Notes under the pieces: generated by a model
Databases searched by the model: none
What the model saw: the letters and a program-made list of their open reading frames with translations, nothing else
What the model was told of the DNA's origin: nothing
Position numbers and translations under genes: made by a program
Assembly (NCBI GenBank): GCA_946407705.1
Contig: CAMJPC010000006.1
Span: 43,753-107,752, forward strand
DNA from: an uncultured Clostridia bacterium
GTDB taxonomy: Bacteria; Bacillota; Clostridia; Saccharofermentanales; Saccharofermentanaceae
DNA: 64,000 bases
Direction: 5' to 3'
Shown: piece after piece, positions 17,977 to 25,509 of the stretch
How positions within the stretch are numbered: the first letter of the stretch is position 1
Layout of the letters: every line of letters begins with the position of its first letter

Positions 17977-19404
17977 TCAGAGATCATAATACATCTCATA
18001 CTCCATAGGTGTCGGCATGGCTATATGTCTCTTGAGATCCTTTCGCTTATTATTGATCCAGAGTTCAATGAGTTCCTTCGGGAATACTCCGCCTGCTCTG
18101 AGGAACTCGTTATCTGCCGCAAGAGCCTTGATAGCAGAGCCAAGAGACTTAGGCAATCCCTTGATCTTTGCCTTCTCTTCGTCAGACAGATTGAACAGAT
18201 TGAAATCATACGGACCAAAACCTTCGGCAACCGGATCGATCTTATTCTTGATACCATCAAGACCGGCCATTAGAATTGCCGCATAGCAATAATACGGATT
18301 ACATGTCGCATCAGGATTACGCAGCTCGAATCTCTTCTTATCGGGAGTTTTTGCATAAGCAGGGATCCTGATGACTGAACTGCGGTTAGCTGTTGCAAAA
18401 CCGATAGTAACAGGCGCTTCGAAACCCGGAAGCAATCTCTTATATGAGTTTGTTGAAGGGTTGGAGAAAGCGCATATTGCAGCAACATGCTTAAGTACTC
18501 CGCCAATAAAATAAAGTGCAGTCTGTGACAATCCGGAATATCCGTTCTCGTCATAGAAGACGGGTTTTCCGTCCTTGAACATCAGCATATGGACATGCAT
18601 TCCTGATCCTGCCTCACCATATATCGGTTTGGGCATGAAGGTTGCAGTTCTTCCTTCCCTGACAGCCTCATTCTTTATTATGTATTTAGCAAGCATGGTC
18701 TTATCAGCCATCTCGGTCATTGTTCCGAATTCGACTTCAACTTCCATCTGTCCGGGACCGCCAACCTCATGATGGTGATACTTAACAGCTATGCCCTGCT
18801 CTTCCATGAGCATAGTAACACGGCTTCTGAAGTCATAATGGATATCCTGTGGAGGAGCGATGTGATAACCGCCCTGATGAGGTGTCTGGAATCCGTTGGC
18901 ATCAGAACATCCGCTGTTCCAGAAAGCCTCCTCGGTATCTATAGAGAACCCTGATTCATCAGGACTGTTGGAGAACGAAGCCGAATCGAAAACATAGAAT
19001 TCAAACTCAGGGCCGAGCAGATAAGTATCTGCAACGCCGAGTTCCTTCATGTATTCTTCAGCTCTTTTGCATACGTTCCTGGGTTCCTGATCAAAGGGTT
19101 TATTGTCGTCCTTGCCGATGATACGAACATCACCGATCATGGAAAGCGTTTTGATCTCAGGGAAAGGATCTATCGCAGCACTCGAAAGATCCGGTATAAA
19201 TACCATGTCGCTTTTTTCGACAGGCGCAAAGCCATAGTTGCTCCCGTCAAAACCAATACCGTTCTTCATGGTATCCTCACTGAACCGTTGAGCCGGTATC
19301 GTGAGATGATGCCATCTTCCGTTGATGTCGATCATTCTGAAATCGATCATTTCGATCTCATTGTCAGAAATGAAGTTCAACACATCTTCTGCCGTCTTAA
19401 ACAT
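17977..19404 (-). CDS. glnA: Glutamine synthetase type I
   Basis: FDGS, GPEFEF, HHEV, FMPKP, GSGMHVH, NRS..IRIP and RFELR motifs. Confidence 0.96.
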   Translation of the reverse strand: MFKTAEDVLNFISDNEIEMIDFRMIDINGRWHHLTIPAQRFSEDTMKNGIGFDGSNYGFAPVEKSDMVFIPDLSSAAIDPFPEIKTLSMIGDVRIIGKDDNKPFDQEPRNVCKRAEEYMKELGVADTYLLGPEFEFYVFDSASFSNSPDESGFSIDTEEAFWNSGCSDANGFQTPHQGGYHIAPPQDIHYDFRSRVTMLMEEQGIAVKYHHHEVGGPGQMEVEVEFGTMTEMADKTMLAKYIIKNEAVREGRTATFMPKPIYGEAGSGMHVHMLMFKDGKPVFYDENGYSGLSQTALYFIGGVLKHVAAICAFSNPSTNSYKRLLPGFEAPVTIGFATANRSSVIRIPAYAKTPDKKRFELRNPDATCNPYYCYAAILMAGLDGIKNKIDPVAEGFGPYDFNLFNLSDEEKAKIKGLPKSLGSAIKALAADNEFLRAGGVFPKELIELWINNKRKDLKRHIAMPTPMEYEMYYDL

Positions 19405-19570
19405 AGTCGTTCCTCCGCTTTTTAGGATACAAACGTAAGGTCATTCATTTCAGAATGACTGCAACGGTCCCCGTTTGACCGCTGCGACAGTAACTGCGAT
19501 GAATATTTAGTTGTCTGGATTATTATATCAAAAATTAAATATTCTTAACACTTATCCGCAAAAATGTGTG

Positions 19571-20029
19571 TTAATTACGTTCTGAAAGCGCTTTCCAAAA
19601 ACCGTTTAAACCTATAACGAGATCATTGTAAGTCTCATCAAAATTATCCGTGTACCAAGGATCTGCTATGCTTCTGCTAAGTCCTGCAAATTCAAGCATC
19701 TGATAGATCTTGCCGTCAGGATCGCCGCCTGCGATACGCTTCATATTTGAGACATTGTAGGAGTCCATCCCGATAAGATAATCGTACTTATCGTAATCTT
19801 CACGTGTCATCTGTCTGGCGCGGTGAGGAATGACTGGAATTCCGACCTCTCTAAGCTTCTGAACCGTTCCGTAATGAGGACCGTTTCCGATCTCCTCCCT
19901 GCTGGTGGCAGCGGAATCTATATAAAACTCATCAGCCACCCCCATTTTATTGACCATATCCTGAAGCATACACTGAGCCATAGTGCTTCTGCATATATTG
20001 CCGTGACATACGAATAATACTTTTATCAT
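19571..20029 (-). CDS. Low-molecular-weight protein-tyrosine phosphatase
   Basis: VCHGNICRS P-loop and DPWY. Confidence 0.92.
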   Translation of the reverse strand: MIKVLFVCHGNICRSTMAQCMLQDMVNKMGVADEFYIDSAATSREEIGNGPHYGTVQKLREVGIPVIPHRARQMTREDYDKYDYLIGMDSYNVSNMKRIAGGDPDGKIYQMLEFAGLSRSIADPWYTDNFDETYNDLVIGLNGFWKALSERN

Positions 20030-20640
20030 TGCTTATCCTTTGCTAACAGTTTTACGATTTCCCCGTAATCTCCCATAAAGCGGAATGCATTAAGACCGGC
20101 TTTGCGGGCTCCGGAACAGTTCTCTTCCCTGTCATCGATAAACAGGCATTCTCCGGGATTTAAAGAGTACTTTTCCAGGAAAGCATTATATATCTCGAGA
20201 TCAGGTTTGAGCATAAGGTAATCCGACGAAACGAAAACGCCGTTAAAGAAATCCAACGGCAAAAAGCGCGGAAAATAATCATAGAAAAGATCACTCGCGT
20301 TAGACAAAACATAGATGCCATAGCCGTTTCCCTTTACGTATTCGCAAAACTCTTTCGCGCCGGTTAACGGCTTCATGCAGATATCCCATCTGTCGGCACA
20401 ATCGCTTAACGCCTTGTGATACTGCTCAGGAACACGTACTTTTACCAGATCATATCTGTCCTTGTCCTTAATGTCGCCTCTGTCACCCAATGCCCATTCG
20501 GGGCCGTTAAACAATTCTTTCCGGATTACTTCTTTCTCTCCATCTGACGAACAGAATTCATTCAAAACGAAATCCGGATTAAAATCCAGCAGGACATTTC
20601 CCATGTCGAGCACGATGTTTTTGATCATATTTGCTTTCAC
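20026..20640 (-). CDS. HAD-family phosphatase
   Basis: DMGNV, LSN, KP and FIDD motifs. Confidence 0.88.
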   Translation of the reverse strand: MKANMIKNIVLDMGNVLLDFNPDFVLNEFCSSDGEKEVIRKELFNGPEWALGDRGDIKDKDRYDLVKVRVPEQYHKALSDCADRWDICMKPLTGAKEFCEYVKGNGYGIYVLSNASDLFYDYFPRFLPLDFFNGVFVSSDYLMLKPDLEIYNAFLEKYSLNPGECLFIDDREENCSGARKAGLNAFRFMGDYGEIVKLLAKDKQ

Positions 20641-20641
20641 T

Positions 20642-21052
20642 TTATTTCAGATTTTCGGGTCCGAAGCTCTCGGGCAAGAGTTCTTCAAGCTTCATTTCCC
20701 TATAATCGGATTCGCTTCTGGCCATTACGACTTTCAGATCTTTCGGATCCGAAAACTCTCTTAATACCTGTCTGCAAATGCCGCAAGGAGAAGTATATCC
20801 GCCGTCGTTTCCATTGGAATCCCTGCTTACAATGGCGATAGACCTGATGCGTCTCTCCCCGCATGAAGCTGCTTTTGCAACCGCATTACACTCAGCGCAG
20901 ATTCCTGCAGGATATGAAGCGTTCTCAACATTAACACCGGAATAGATCTTGCCAGAACCGGCAAGAACAGCCGCAGCGACATGAAACCCGGAATAAGGCG
21001 CATAGGAATTACCCAAAACATCAAGAGCACTTCTGATCAGTTCTTCATTCAT
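20642..21052 (-). CDS. cdd: Cytidine deaminase
   Basis: YAPYS, NVENASY, CAE and PCGICRQ zinc motifs. Confidence 0.93.
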   Translation of the reverse strand: MNEELIRSALDVLGNSYAPYSGFHVAAAVLAGSGKIYSGVNVENASYPAGICAECNAVAKAASCGERRIRSIAIVSRDSNGNDGGYTSPCGICRQVLREFSDPKDLKVVMARSESDYREMKLEELLPESFGPENLK

Positions 21053-21155
21053 GGTAAGCGTTGCCTCCTCCTTTGATATTTTAATCGAAGTTACTTCCGC
21101 ATTCTATTAACAAATCGGAAAAATGTGCTAAACTATCTCCGATATCTCAAAGAAA

Positions 21156-21322
21156 GGGCGCACAAAGATGCATTGGATCACACCTAACATACAGCTTATG
21201 AATGGTTTCTATGCAGCTTCTGCTAGGAGAAGTGCGCCCATTTTCAGGTAAAATACCTAGTTTTTCCATACTGATCTAAAGTGCTCTTCTCCTTTGAATC
21301 ATTACTTTCAAAGGAGTTTTTT
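21156..21322 (+). promoter_or_regulatory. Attenuator leader with mutually exclusive helices
   Basis: 21156-63/21232-39 (GGGCGCAC/GTGCGCCC), 21225-32/21286-93 (AGGAGAAG/CTTCTCCT), and 21289-98/21307-16 (CTCCTTTGAA/TTCAAAGGAG) followed by T6. Confidence 0.7.
21168..21251 (+). CDS. Putative 27-aa leader peptide (MHWITPNIQLMNGFYAASARRSAPIFR)
   Basis: AAAGGG SD at 21153-21158, ATG at 21168, TAA at 21249; embedded in complementary segments upstream of the MFS gene. Confidence 0.6.
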   Translation: MHWITPNIQLMNGFYAASARRSAPIFR

Positions 21323-22417
21323 ATGACCGTTTCAAAAATCAAAAACCAGCTCAAAAGGCTGTATTTATCCAACTTCATTTCGAATATCTCCATTGCCGGT
21401 GCCGCATGGGTTCTGCTTCTGGTAAATGACGGATATTCCCTTATACAAGTCGGCCTGGCAGAGACCGTCTTCCATATCGTAAGTCTGACATTCGAGATAC
21501 CTTCAGGCGTATTCGCTGATACTTTAGGCAGAAAAAAGTGCCTGTTGCTCAGCAGTTTTGCCGCTCTCATATCAGCTTTCGTAAGAGGCTTTTTACCGGG
21601 CTTCGGATTCGTCCTGGTCTCAATAGCCTTCTCTGCCCTGTCTTATAATTTCGCTTCAGGATCTGACAGTGCACTTGCTTACGATTCGCTTCTTGAAGAA
21701 AAACGTCAGGATGAGTACGACAGATACATATCGACTCAGACAATCATTTACCGTGTCGCAGGAGGAATAGCAACGCTTGCTGCCGGCCTTGCAGTAACCA
21801 TGGGCACACGAAATGCCCAGATACTTTCAATTGGTTTGGCGCTGATCAACATGGTCGTGTTGTCGGGACTTAAAGAGAATCTTGTCATCACGCGCAAGAA
21901 AGATGTCACCCTTGCGAAAAGGTTCAAAGACACATATAAAGGCGCGTTCAGGTTCCTTAAAGGCAATACGCGTGTGGCAGGGCTCATATTCCGCAACGCA
22001 TTAGTCGGTGCCGTGGATGTCCTTTTGCTGTTCTTCCTTCAGGCTAAACTGCCTATGACAGGCATACCTGATTGGTTATTGGGCCCCCTCCTCTTCTTTA
22101 TGTCTTTAGGAGGCATTCTTGGCGCAAAGATATCTTATAAAGCAGCCAAATACACATTGAAGAAGCTGTTTGTAATCTGTCTCGTCATTGCACTCGCCGG
22201 ACTCGTGACCGAGTTTACCGGCATCTGGCAGCTTATGACCATTGGCGGTTTCCTGACTTCATTCGCAGACGACCTGCTTCAGATAAGATCCGACGTAGAA
22301 CTCAATTCAATGGTTCCGCCCGAACAGAGAGCCACACTGATTTCAGTGAACTCGTTTTGTTTCTCGGTGATAATGATCGTCTTATCACCTTTGGCAGGAT
22401 GGGTGTTTTCGTTGTAA
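21323..22417 (+). CDS. MFS transporter (efflux-type)
   Basis: FEIPSGVFADTLGRKK motif A, many TM helices, QRATLIS. True start is ATG 21323 after the AAAGGAG SD. Confidence 0.88.
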   Translation: MTVSKIKNQLKRLYLSNFISNISIAGAAWVLLLVNDGYSLIQVGLAETVFHIVSLTFEIPSGVFADTLGRKKCLLLSSFAALISAFVRGFLPGFGFVLVSIAFSALSYNFASGSDSALAYDSLLEEKRQDEYDRYISTQTIIYRVAGGIATLAAGLAVTMGTRNAQILSIGLALINMVVLSGLKENLVITRKKDVTLAKRFKDTYKGAFRFLKGNTRVAGLIFRNALVGAVDVLLLFFLQAKLPMTGIPDWLLGPLLFFMSLGGILGAKISYKAAKYTLKKLFVICLVIALAGLVTEFTGIWQLMTIGGFLTSFADDLLQIRSDVELNSMVPPEQRATLISVNSFCFSVIMIVLSPLAGWVFSL

Positions 22418-22421
22418 AAAG

Positions 22422-22456
22422 AAGATACCCGGTAAATCAATTACCGGGTATCTTTT
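22422..22456. terminator. Bidirectional terminator
   Basis: AAGATACCCGGTAA/TTACCGGGTATCTT 14-bp stem between convergent genes. Confidence 0.85.
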
Positions 22457-22470
22457 AATTCTGTTCCGTA

Positions 22471-25400
22471 TCAGCTGTTATCGTCAGGAGCTCTGAACTG
22501 ACCCTGGTCAACGAGTCTGAGGAATGCATCGACTACTTCTTCATCAAGCTGGGTTCCCCTGACCTCTTTAATGATCGACAATACCTTGGAGAAAGGCATT
22601 CTGTTTCTGTAAGGTCGGTTGGAATACATTGCATCGAACGTATCCGCAACCGCGATGATCCGGGCCACCAGCGGAATATCTTTGTGAGCAAGGCCATTAG
22701 GATATCCCTTTCCATCCGGACGTTCGTGATGGGCACCGGCACCGATCGCAAGTTCAGGCATGATGCTGATATCCTTCAGCGTATCGTAACCCAAAGCCGA
22801 GTGAGACTGGATGATCGCATACTCCTCATCGTTAAGCTTACCGGGTTTGTTCAGAACGCCGTCATCAATACCGATCTTGCCGATATCGTGGAGAAGAGCT
22901 ATGTTGTAGTACTTCTCGACAGTATCGTCATCACAGCCCATCTCCCTGGCGAGCATGGCCGTGTAATGGGCAACTCGAATCGAATGGCCCCTGGTATATT
23001 TATCCTTCATATCGATTACTCGTGCGAAGGCTTCAACGACTTCCCTGATGAACTTTTTCTGCTCATTGTTCTTTTCGATGAGTTTCTCTGTTCTTCTGTT
23101 GATGTATTTCTTGAGGAATACGGAAGCTACTGCAATCAAAACAACAAGAACAGCAATGTTAAACCAGAAATACTCATAGAAATGAAGCTGTTTGTCAATG
23201 ACAACATTGAAGTCAAAAGTCTGACCGTTATGCGGATCGACAATATGCATTTTGTAATGATATCTTCCGCCCTTCAGGTTTGTGTAGTCGACAGGCTGCA
23301 GATTGGTTCTGGGAACCGTTATAGATGTCTTGTCAAAACCTTCAAGCAGGTATGTAACCTCAGGATTGATCAGCGAATAATTAAATACAAAGCTGTGGAT
23401 AGTAAGCTTTCTGGTTGACGGACTGATAGTGAAACTGCCGTCCGCATTCGGATATACAAGAACACCATCAGCCTCAACGAAAGGAACTGCTGCTTTTACG
23501 ATGCTTGCAGAATCAGTCGACTTATCGATGTTTACTCTGGTAACACCGCTCGTACAAGCAATGTAAAGGAAACCGTCAGATGTCAGTTCGCTGTAGGAAT
23601 TCGATGTCGCTATTCCGGGAAGACCATTATAGATTCCATAGAAAAGATACTTGAATGTCTTGCCGCTCAAGATGTCTTCGGTCTTTGCAACATAAATGCC
23701 GTTACTGCTCAATACCCACATATCATCTTTAGCATTCTGATAAAGATCGAAATTGTTGAGATACGGGAATGTTCTGACGTTCTTAACCTTGTAATCCGAA
23801 TCAAGGTATTCGATCGAGTTGCTCGTTACGAGCCACATGATATCTCTCTTTTTGTCCTTCTTGACTCTCATTACAACGTCAGAAGTGAGACCGTCATTGA
23901 TGGTAATGGCTTTTACGCCGGAATCGTTTATGACATAAACACCGCCGCCATCAGTTCCGATGACCATATCACCGTTATCCATCTGGGATGCGGTCAGGAT
24001 CTCGGTATTAATAATTCCGTCTTTCTCATTGTAAACCTTGGTAACCTTGCTGTTTTCGACAATCGCAAGACCACCGGTGCAGCAGACCATAAGTGCACCG
24101 TCAGCACGCTCGAAAACAGTCCTGACTCTGTCAGACGGAAGTCCTTCTTCAGATCTGATCTTCCAGATCCTGCCATTCTTCAGACCTATAAGACCGTAAT
24201 CACCGAAAGTCGAGAACCAAATAACGCCTTTGCGGTCTACGTTGATCGACCTGATCTTGCTCGTGGACAAAAGCGTAATGAGATCCTTATCCTCATCACC
24301 ATCCCTGACCATGAGTTCATTCAGGACTTTACCGCCCTTGATTACGATCAGACCGGTATTCTTTGTGCCGATGTAAAGACTGTCATCATAAACGCATGTT
24401 GTATAAACAACGCCCTCAGCAAGACCATATTTACTGAAGATATCAGAGAACTGGTTCGGTACGATCTTCATAACGCCCTGCTGTGAAGATACATACCAAA
24501 GGTTATGGTCGTGATCCGCCATCATGTTTTCAACAGATGTCGTCATGGGCACATCATCTATCGGAGTGAAGTCGTAATCCGTAAAGAAACCTGTACCCTT
24601 ATCAGTACATACCCACATGGAACCGTTGATGATCTCTATGGAATTGATGCTCTGCATACTGCCGGTCAGGAATCTTCTTGAGAGCGAGAACTCACCTGAA
24701 ATAAAGCTTCCGTAGTAGATCGTAGTATCAGAATCGCCGATATAAAGATATCCGGGATTCTCCTCATCAGGCATCAGCGATCTTGCGCCTTCGATATTAA
24801 GTGCTTTAACGTCGTAGAAACCGGTAACCTTAAGGTTTTTCATCGTGAAAACGCAACCATCAACCGTAACGCCGTAAATGGTAGCATTGGCCGAAGATGA
24901 TTTTAATACCCTTACCGATCTGTTAGACAGATTCTCATCTTCAATCGTATGAAGCTTAAGGTCTTTATCTAAATAGCAGATACCGGCGGCGGTTCCGACG
25001 ATTATGTTGCCGGTAACGTCCTCACATATGCTTCTTACTGATAAGGATTTAAGTCCTTCCTCGCGGCCAAAACGCTTGAACTTACCCTTCTCCATTACGG
25101 CTATGCCGCTGTCATTGGTTCCGATCCAAAGCCTGTCTGATGAATCAACGAAAAGACTTACAACGCTGGAAATGCCGGCATCAGTACTGAGATTAACAAA
25201 GGTGTTACCGTCATATCTGATAAGACCGCTGTAGCTTCCTATCCAGATAAAGCCCTCACTTGTCTGGGTAATAGCGTTAGCTTCAGACGTAGGAAGGCCG
25301 TTCCTATTATCGTAAACGACCGCGGAATACCCTTCGTTAGCATGGATCGGGTCTACCCTGACATCAGTTCCGTTCTTGTTATTATTCTCGTCAGCGAGTA

Positions 25401-25509
25401 CTATATGTTCGCCAAAAGCGCTTGAAGCCAAAACCGAAGTTAACAGAAGCAGACAAAGGCTGCACACGCAAAGCTTCAGAAAAGAATTATATAAACGTTT
25501 TCCAACCAT
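22471..25509 (-). CDS. Membrane HD-GYP phosphodiesterase with extracellular two-component-regulator propeller and Y_Y_Y domains
   Basis: Signal peptide, repeated GL.S..V..I..D..G.LWIGT propeller blades, Y_Y_Y domain (YLLEGFD...YTNLKGGRY), TM helix, then YTRGHS, LLHDIGK, HHERPDGKGYP and ADTFDAM. Confidence 0.9.
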   Translation of the reverse strand: MVGKRLYNSFLKLCVCSLCLLLLTSVLASSAFGEHIVLADENNNKNGTDVRVDPIHANEGYSAVVYDNRNGLPTSEANAITQTSEGFIWIGSYSGLIRYDGNTFVNLSTDAGISSVVSLFVDSSDRLWIGTNDSGIAVMEKGKFKRFGREEGLKSLSVRSICEDVTGNIIVGTAAGICYLDKDLKLHTIEDENLSNRSVRVLKSSSANATIYGVTVDGCVFTMKNLKVTGFYDVKALNIEGARSLMPDEENPGYLYIGDSDTTIYYGSFISGEFSLSRRFLTGSMQSINSIEIINGSMWVCTDKGTGFFTDYDFTPIDDVPMTTSVENMMADHDHNLWYVSSQQGVMKIVPNQFSDIFSKYGLAEGVVYTTCVYDDSLYIGTKNTGLIVIKGGKVLNELMVRDGDEDKDLITLLSTSKIRSINVDRKGVIWFSTFGDYGLIGLKNGRIWKIRSEEGLPSDRVRTVFERADGALMVCCTGGLAIVENSKVTKVYNEKDGIINTEILTASQMDNGDMVIGTDGGGVYVINDSGVKAITINDGLTSDVVMRVKKDKKRDIMWLVTSNSIEYLDSDYKVKNVRTFPYLNNFDLYQNAKDDMWVLSSNGIYVAKTEDILSGKTFKYLFYGIYNGLPGIATSNSYSELTSDGFLYIACTSGVTRVNIDKSTDSASIVKAAVPFVEADGVLVYPNADGSFTISPSTRKLTIHSFVFNYSLINPEVTYLLEGFDKTSITVPRTNLQPVDYTNLKGGRYHYKMHIVDPHNGQTFDFNVVIDKQLHFYEYFWFNIAVLVVLIAVASVFLKKYINRRTEKLIEKNNEQKKFIREVVEAFARVIDMKDKYTRGHSIRVAHYTAMLAREMGCDDDTVEKYYNIALLHDIGKIGIDDGVLNKPGKLNDEEYAIIQSHSALGYDTLKDISIMPELAIGAGAHHERPDGKGYPNGLAHKDIPLVARIIAVADTFDAMYSNRPYRNRMPFSKVLSIIKEVRGTQLDEEVVDAFLRLVDQGQFRAPDDNS

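Follow-up and report, generated by a model that had tools for sequence, protein, structure and literature searches.

A candidate leader-peptide attenuator upstream of an MFS transporter gene in Saccharofermentans and related Clostridia

The transporter gene and its leader

We analysed the leader of a gene encoding a transporter of the major facilitator superfamily (MFS), located in a 64,000-nucleotide stretch of DNA, here called the window, from an uncultured bacterium of the Clostridia family Saccharofermentanaceae (GenBank assembly GCA_946407705.1, contig CAMJPC010000006.1, positions 43,753 to 107,752 of the forward strand; all coordinates below are those of the window). The leader carries a short upstream open reading frame (uORF) and a set of competing RNA helices, and comparison with its relatives suggests a leader-peptide attenuator, in which the position of a ribosome on the uORF would decide whether the transporter is made.

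The transporter gene occupies 21323-22417 of the plus strand, begins with an ATG at 21323 and encodes a protein of 364 amino acids with an MFS_1 domain (PF07690). Transcription is directed by a sigma-70-type promoter on the same strand (21107-21134), composed of a -35 element TTAACA (21107-12), a 16-nt spacer and an extended -10 element TGcTAAACT (21126-34), which would place the transcription start near 21141-21143. Equivalent promoters, TTGxCA / TGTTATAtT, sit 14-21 nt 5' of the GAAAGG motif in 22 of 27 orthologous leaders. The uORF has its own Shine-Dalgarno sequence (SD), AGAAAGG at 21151-57, which is presumably complementary to the extreme 3' end of Firmicute 16S rRNA with a suitable aligned spacing. 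The uORF itself (21168-21251) consists of 27 codons, MHWITPNIQLMNGFYAASARRSAPIFR, followed by TAA, and its first 14 codons (21168-21209; M-H-W-I-T-P-N-I-Q-L-M-N-G-F), with invariant W3 and G13, form a peptide-constrained core that we take as the predicted arrest motif. Promoter, AGAAAGG, uORF and the ATG of the transporter gene fit inside 220 nt, a layout kept in 73 leaders.

The same short region encodes several mutually overlapping RNA strands, all on the plus strand. The outermost helix, P1, pairs a 5' strand at 21143-21163 (TATCT..GAAAGGGCGCAC), which holds the uORF SD, with a 3' strand at 21232-21250 (GTGCGCCCaTTTTCaGGTA, codons 22-28), and thereby encloses the entire uORF from SD through stop codon. 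Eight of its base pairs join GGGCGCAC (21156-63) to GTGCGCCC (21232-39, codons 22-24), and the pairing extends to about 20 bp. Within the uORF, the pyrimidine-rich segment 1 (GCAGCTTCTGCT, 21213-21224, codons 16-19) is the local partner of segment 2 (AGGAGAAGtGC, 21225-21235, codons 20-23; as RNA AGGAGAAGUGC), which overlaps the P1 3' strand by 4 nt. Segment 2 is also the 5' strand of an anti-sequestrator, AGGAGAAG(tGC) at 21225-35 pairing with (GCt)CTTCTCCT at 21283-93, so that its 3' strand, segment 3 (GCtCTTCTCCT, 21283-21293), overlaps the 5' strand of the sequestrator. The latter (segments 3 and 4, 21289-21322) is a perfect 10-bp hairpin of CTCCTTTGAA (21289-98) and TTCAAAGGAG (21307-16), followed by T6 at 21317-22; its energy is -13.5 kcal/mol and its 3' arm is the SD of the transporter gene (AAAGGAG). 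In its minimum-energy fold the leader is OFF, with P1 and the sequestrator both formed (z = -2.5 versus shuffles).

The transporter gene ends just before a hairpin at 22420-22456, a 16-bp perfect palindrome with T runs flanking it on both strands. This bidirectional terminator is common to the transporter gene and the convergent HD-domain gene, a Reg_prop / HD-GYP-like gene of 1012 amino acids on the minus strand (22471-25509), and the transporter gene is therefore monocistronic. On the other side, a cytidine deaminase gene (20642-21052, minus strand) points away from the leader. It belongs to a minus-strand neighbourhood (17977-21052) that also encodes a HAD hydrolase and a low-molecular-weight phosphotyrosine phosphatase, with glutamine synthetase farther along; this neighbourhood is not kept beside the transporter gene in other species.

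Selection on the uORF peptide and on the competing helices

Whether the uORF is coding was addressed by column entropy over 27 leaders, by frame and synonymous-change tests over 66 distinct leaders and by residue counts over 73. Across codons 2-14 the entropy at codon positions 1, 2 and 3 is 0.44, 0.43 and 0.93, a wobble signature that is absent from codons 22-28. In the uORF frame 57.4% (0.574) of the single-nucleotide codon differences over codons 2-14 are synonymous, as against 14.6-20% in the other two plus frames, 4-39% in the minus frames and 26 +/- 9% in column shuffles, none of 300 of which matches the observed value. Likewise, the uORF frame alone among the six is open over these codons in all 66 aligned leaders. 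A minus-strand ORF antisense to the leader (21147-21269) was considered and rejected: stops interrupt two of the three minus frames in most leaders, and the third, interrupted in 3 of 66, has a synonymous fraction of 0.04, the lowest of all frames.

The initial annotation had proposed conservation of the uORF peptide among orthologues of the transporter as a check, and conservation is what we find, confined to codons 1-14. M1, W3 and G13 are invariant among the 73 distinct leaders, and T5, N7, (I/L/V)8 and L10 are nearly so, giving a consensus M-x-W-(I/K)-T-x-N-(I/L/V)-(Q/H)-L-M-x-G. These residues are kept through synonymous codons, Gly13 being written with all four of its codons and Leu10 with five (CTT, CTC, CTG, TTA, TTG), and RNAalifold detected no RNA structure conserved over codons 1-16. 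A hairpin of 5-6 bp between codons 7-9 and 11-12 (CATTCA/TGAATG or AACAT/ATGTT) is possible in some variants and is not conserved. The pattern of substitution thus indicates that the uORF is translated and that its N-terminus is selected at the amino-acid level.

Past codon 14 the peptide varies. The stop codon ranges from codon 19 to codon 37, so that the uORF is 18-36 residues long; frameshifted leaders reach 30-36 residues, and seven leaders of one clade (L027, L066, L067, L068, L130, L133, L134) stop at codon 19, for example MHWTTNNVHLMKGYIIAL, with the TAA directly 5' of the anti-sequestrator strand. Among the close relatives L063 and L064, and in L062, single-T indels put the stop at codons 33-35 instead of about codon 29. 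Given that stops vary even among close relatives, the position of the stop is evidently not critical. The nucleotide block (G)GGGnTAGTGCGCCyTTTTTyRGG is kept whether it is translated or not, and this, together with the variation past codon 14, argues that the sensor would be the first 13-14 residues and that the region encoding A-R-R-S is conserved as RNA. An earlier proposal had noted that the anti-sequestrator strand lies within the A-R-R-S codons of the peptide. The strand is indeed there, yet the sensing part appears to be the N-terminal one, and in the seven early-stopping leaders the A-R-R-S segment lies outside the uORF altogether.

For the helices, RNAalifold on raw MAFFT alignments recovered just the core of the SD hairpin and a 3-bp mini-hairpin, because indels misalign P1. 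It was replaced by per-sequence duplex predictions, permutation tests of cognate against non-cognate strands, and an alignment based on a covariance model. The anti-sequestrator stands out already in the plain MAFFT alignment, where 86% of cells are paired and 6 of 10 pairs show double changes (slid controls reach at most 63%); in the model-based alignment of 66 leaders 80% are paired, with double changes at 7 of 10 pairs, and none of 500 shuffles reaches the observed pairing or covariation score. GAGAAG/CTTCTC is thus replaced in other leaders by GGTCAG/CTGACT, GGGTAC/GTACTC or GGTTAC/GTAACT. P1 and the sequestrator together have 15 pairs with double changes, again unmatched in 500 shuffles, and the inner sequestrator stem co-varies. 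Cognate strands pair more stably than non-cognate ones for P1 (-16.9 versus -13.7 kcal/mol; 0 of 5000 permutations) and for the anti-sequestrator (-19.5 versus -14.5 kcal/mol; 0 of 5000). The same holds by a smaller difference for the hairpin of segments 1 and 2 (-6.96 versus -6.34 kcal/mol; 2 of 5000), in which codons 16-19 pair with the AGGAG of segment 2. The stretch made up of segment 2 and the P1 3' strand has to serve two pairing partners, of which one is an SD, and this explains its extreme conservation. Judged from these comparisons, the helices exist and are mutually exclusive.

The features on which the initial annotation had built its proposal, namely the extended -10, the 27-codon uORF with its own SD, the helices and the T6, are all present where it had placed them. 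The 8-bp helix between the uORF SD region and codons 22-24 turned out to be part of a much longer one, and the three helices said to compete all co-vary in an arrangement that recurs in 73 distinct leaders. The suggestion that the SD hairpin with its T6 could also terminate transcription gains weight from the rarity of such spacers: between SD and start codon, T5 occurs at 1.5% and T6 at 0.3% of 1525 SD-bearing gene starts in the source genome. A run of at least five T follows the stem in all 27 orthologues inspected, is longer in most, and is likewise present at the additional loci examined. That the run is rare in the genome and kept among orthologues indicates that the U tract is selected. 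The energy of the hairpin is -9.5 to -15.2 kcal/mol across the 27 orthologues, and, as the gene next to it is transcribed divergently, the hairpin is not another gene's terminator. We infer that the hairpin and U tract act at once as an intrinsic terminator and as a sequestrator of the SD.

Two observations concern related elements. In five other genes of the source genome the start comes right after an SD buried within a stable hairpin and a run of five or more T, for example TTACTCCCGGATTCATTCCGGGAGTTTTTTTATG; these elements may be further attenuators, or else terminators of the preceding genes with a second role as ribosome-binding sites. In the leaders of a sister genus (g24; L058-L065) the distance from the uORF stop to segment 3 is 30-45 nt longer and accommodates an extra linker hairpin, for example AAGCACTTCC...GGAATTCCTGTGCTTTTCG, which might be a pause site or an additional terminator-like element.

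Distribution of the leader and its gene

A covariance model built on the leader was run over genomes. Of 143 genomes in the family, 76 (68 of Saccharofermentans and 8 of the sister genus) have the leader, always as exactly one real copy. Outside the family, 8 of 101 genera in a second, large family of Clostridia (f30) and 1 of 101 in a third (f25) have it; an evenly drawn sample of 400 genomes of the class yielded it outside the family in just those two lineages, and a further 400 evenly drawn genomes of the phylum gave no match outside the class. Every real match adjoins the same MFS subfamily. Weak matches at L070-L075, L119 and L120 (E 1e-5 to 7e-3) were discarded as spurious, being SD hairpins with a T run before unrelated genes.

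The association is as strict when approached from the gene. In 37 genomes of the genus 27 orthologous MFS genes were found, each with the leader about 155 nt 5' of its start, and among 36 genomes of same-genus relatives leader and transporter gene occur together in 26 and are both missing from 10, a perfect co-occurrence. Given that the flanking genes are not syntenic, leader and transporter gene travel as a unit. Relatives of the MFS protein belong to Saccharofermentans, represented by metagenome-assembled genomes from rumen and gut and by the Hungate isolates YAD3003 and AB4001. No DNA resembling the leader was found in a collection of 72,556 plasmids, whose best MFS relatives are just 27-31% identical to the transporter. 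The protein itself gives weak, far sub-threshold matches to the efflux models HP1165, TetA(P) and Tet(40), and public names of 1338 homologues read solely "MFS transporter/permease".

A more distant arrangement was seen on the Clostridium butyricum CBM588 megaplasmid NZ_CP132345.1 (L121:1190-1455), where the MFS gene for WP_058372225.1, 31% identical, has a leader of its own. This leader has a strong SD and a Cys-rich uORF (MNGLGYKPVCSSSACSKTCCFELLQDYCALF, then stop) and contains a block, CAGGACTACTGCGCCCTTTTTTAGGG, which is nearly identical to the segment 2/P1 3' block of Saccharofermentans and is read in another frame; after it come the anti-terminator-like GCAGTAGCTCCT and a hairpin with a T run. 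The covariance model does not score it as significant. The arrangement suggests a common RNA scaffold that carries an unrelated sensor peptide.

Attenuation model and comparison with known systems

We propose, with a probability of about 0.7, that the locus is a cis-acting, translation-dependent leader-peptide attenuator controlling a monocistronic MFS efflux-type gene. In the order of transcription, which would begin about 10 nt ahead of P1, the switch would consist of P1 around the uORF, segment 1 (codons 16-19), segment 2 (codons 20-23), segment 3 (GCuCUUCUCCU), segment 4 (AAGGAG, the transporter SD) and U6. When the uORF is not translated, P1 and the pairing of segments 1 and 2 would occupy segment 2, leaving segment 3 to pair with segment 4, and transcription would end at the U tract or the SD would be buried; P1 would serve as an added lock for this untranslated state. 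Free translation should give the same outcome, as the ribosome would cover segment 2 and the P1 3' strand and terminate there, and the sequestrator would re-form. In accordance, a ribosome placed at the stop codon, whether codon 19 or 28, covers segment 2 or the P1 3' strand, which corresponds to OFF. The transporter would be made when a ribosome is arrested with its P site on codons 13-15, Trp3 then lying some 10 residues back from the peptidyl-transferase centre. Its footprint would then cover segment 1 and leave segment 2 free to pair with segment 3, blocking the terminator/sequestrator. Most likely, then, ribosome stalling on the leader peptide turns the transporter on, and the modelling adds that erm-like logic of this kind needs a fourth element beyond the three helices of the initial annotation, the small hairpin that would pair codons 17-19 with the anti-sequestrator.

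The position of the predicted arrest comes from a footprint scan, in which a ribosome was masked at each P-site codon in turn, pairing across it was disallowed, and the probability that the GGAG of the transporter SD is unpaired was computed. This probability is 0.02 without a ribosome. The SD opens solely with the P site at codons 13, 14 and 15 (0.36, 0.46 and 0.36), remaining at or below 0.14 elsewhere and at 0.00 from codon 17. This range of codons is unchanged for leading edges between +13 and +17 nt and recurs in both lineages examined, including the distant family. Peptide conservation ends at the same place (G13, x14), so that two independent kinds of data agree. Arrest is thus predicted during elongation rather than at the stop codon, because stop positions vary, and it would probably depend on a small molecule, either an antibiotic or a metabolite exported by the transporter. 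A nascent chain of just 13-15 residues stays within the tunnel at that point, which excludes force sensing.

Several points weigh against this proposal. When P1 is allowed to form across the stalled ribosome, the scan never opens the SD (at most 0.09), and the model therefore needs P1 to be sterically excluded, a second ribosome to be queued on the SD, or the fold to be kinetically trapped; the space behind a ribosome at codons 13-15 is just enough for one queued ribosome. Even in the best range of P-site codons the equilibrium probability of an open SD averages just 0.46. The location of the uORF SD inside P1 requires that translation start co-transcriptionally. Residue 12 (21201-21203) is Asn (AAY) in some leaders and Phe (TTY) or Lys (AAA) in others, an odd pattern for a tight peptide sensor; a change compensating for the AA-to-TT flip in this codon was looked for and none was found. 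Lastly, the transporter is without a characterised close relative, and no solved structure was matched by sequence.

The tolerance of N, F and K at position 12 would fit a leader that is a general sensor of translation speed, sharing the RNA logic and having no specific ligand. The N-terminal peptide would then make the ribosome intrinsically slow near codons 13-15, and any elongation insult, be it one of several antibiotic classes, starvation or loss of a rescue factor, would lengthen the pause and induce the pump, as proposed for bmrB-bmrCD and PA5471.1-mexXY. Such a sensor rests on the same structural evidence as the arrest model and fits the lack of any match to known drug-specific motifs, be they for macrolides, phenicols or other drugs, or to leader-peptide families, but the invariance of W3 and G13 at a fixed spacing over three families suggests a specific interaction with the tunnel, and we regard it as unlikely. 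The selection on the peptide and its strict co-occurrence with one MFS subfamily could also be read as signs of a micropeptide acting in trans, perhaps as the transporter's partner or regulator, with the RNA helices forming an independent layer bound by a protein or ligand. That the conservation is limited to the first 13-14 residues, that frameshifts and early stops let the length range from 18 to 36 residues, and that the peptide has no hydrophobic span for membrane association all make this very improbable; moreover, the ORF shares nucleotides with the co-varying switch helices, a hallmark of cis-acting leaders.

At the RNA level, the succession of P1, anti-terminator and terminator is also the layout of an OFF riboswitch. 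P1 with its enclosed loop might be an aptamer or a protein site whose ligand stabilises P1 and so turns expression off, the ORF being incidental or modulatory; P1 does co-vary, and the block GTGCGCC..TTTT..GG is very conserved, even in another frame in C. butyricum. The high conservation of segment 2 and the P1 3' strand is, however, accounted for by the need to pair with either of two partners, including an SD. Inside P1 the loop lacks a conserved secondary structure, and its sequence conservation has a period of three bases, with synonymous changes. A search of Rfam over 20000-23000 at E = 10 gave no relevant match, just a spurious lncRNA hit at 22217-22320. A riboswitch or protein-binding RNA therefore seems very improbable as well.

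Within the arrest model, it is conceivable, though we hold this part only tentatively, that M-x-W-x-T-x-N-(I/L/V)-x-L-x-x-G is a new ligand-sensing arrest peptide, with Trp at -10 and Gly in the P site, which acts inside the tunnel as a chain of 13-15 residues. It would detect a specific natural product or metabolite met by rumen and gut Clostridia and induce a dedicated exporter. The RNA scaffold would be older than the peptide, a modular platform on which sensor peptides are exchanged. To our knowledge, few ribosome-arrest peptides are known, and most come from model pathogens or resistance plasmids. The present case has unusually complete comparative support, with 73 natural variants, invariant residues, a stall codon predicted from two independent lines and a monocistronic output gene. 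If an inducer is found, an MFS subfamily so far uncharacterised, in Clostridia that abound in rumen and gut, would gain a function, and either a system of intrinsic antibiotic-responsive efflux in livestock microbiomes or a new sensor of metabolites could come to light. As a covariance-model marker, the leader can also serve for annotation of the regulon in metagenomes.

Is the leader a member of a known family? Four variants of the leader peptide gave no NCBIfam or Pfam match at E = 10, and literature searches for such an arrest or leader peptide of an MFS gene yielded just the known erm, mef, bmr and mexXY systems. The best reading is an erm/trp-style ribosome-arrest attenuator, a previously undescribed member of the leader-peptide attenuator class. 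The initial annotation had likewise proposed an undescribed leader peptide that switches helices before an MFS gene, and this is now supported, at the level of sequence comparison, by peptide selection, co-variation, selection of the hairpin with its U tract, and perfect co-occurrence of leader and transporter gene.

The closest logic is that of the ermC/ermB-type translational attenuators, the mef(E)/mel transcriptional attenuator (PMC4335068) and msrD (PMC10314930). As in the erm and mef leaders, a short SD-bearing leader ORF precedes a resistance or efflux gene and the RNA has four successive segments; as in ermC, an arrested ribosome would mask segment 1, so that segments 2 and 3 pair and the SD is freed or the terminator prevented. 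The hairpin here would do both jobs, burial of the SD and termination, as in mixed attenuators. Unlike the erm and mef leader peptides, the present one lacks an IFVI, RLR, +x+ or MYLIFM motif, and its conserved part is longer (13-14 residues) and lies at the very N-terminus. The long-range P1 that encloses uORF and SD is an addition, and the gene belongs to the chromosomal core of commensal Clostridia of rumen and gut rather than to a mobile resistance element. Among Firmicutes, bmrB-bmrCD (PMC4191407) and the vmlR / lmo0919-type leaders are similar as ribosome-mediated transcription attenuators before a transporter or ABC-F gene, with the terminator immediately 5' of the gene. Peptide and RNA differ, and whereas those leaders show little conservation of the peptide across families, the peptide described here is conserved in at least three Clostridia families.

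The three predicted states recall trpL, in which 3:4 pairing terminates transcription both without translation, when 1:2 forms too, and with full translation, and a ribosome held at a defined site allows 2:3 pairing and read-through, and P1 would act as the 1:2 pairing that signals no translation and hence OFF. The leader differs from trpL in having neither a run of regulatory codons nor a biosynthetic operon behind it, in the conservation of the peptide sequence as such, and in the place of the P1 5' strand, which lies 5' of the start codon rather than inside the ORF. An amino-acid starvation attenuator of the trpL, hisL or leuL type was rejected, as MHWITPNIQLMNGF... contains no repeated codon and the downstream gene encodes an MFS efflux-like transporter.

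With respect to the peptide, the nearest parallels are sequence-specific arrest peptides. The SecM arrest motif is FxxxxWIxxxxGIRAGP (FSTPVWISQAQGIRAGP; PMC10951299, PMC10192921). The step from W3 to G13 is +10, like that from W155 to G165 of SecM, and both peptides read W-I-(S/T), a likeness that is geometric and no more than suggestive. The predicted arrest site here has no RAGP or Pro, and a uORF of 18-36 codons with arrest predicted at residues 13-15 within the tunnel differs from SecM, MifM and VemP, which have an N-terminal signal or TM segment and a nascent chain that reaches the translocon when arrest sets in, in leaving no room for force sensing. Unlike TnaC, which arrests at the stop codon, arrest here would occur during elongation. 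What the leader shares with SecM, TnaC and SpeFL is an invariant Trp about 10 residues N-terminal to the predicted P-site residue, a conserved sequence that spans the upper tunnel, and an output, here predicted, in which refolding of the mRNA activates the downstream gene. In the ligand-sensing arrest peptides TnaC and SpeFL, arrest of a conserved peptide requires a small metabolite bound in the tunnel or the peptidyl-transferase centre; the present peptide, conserved and with a fixed spacing from W to G, may be of this class.

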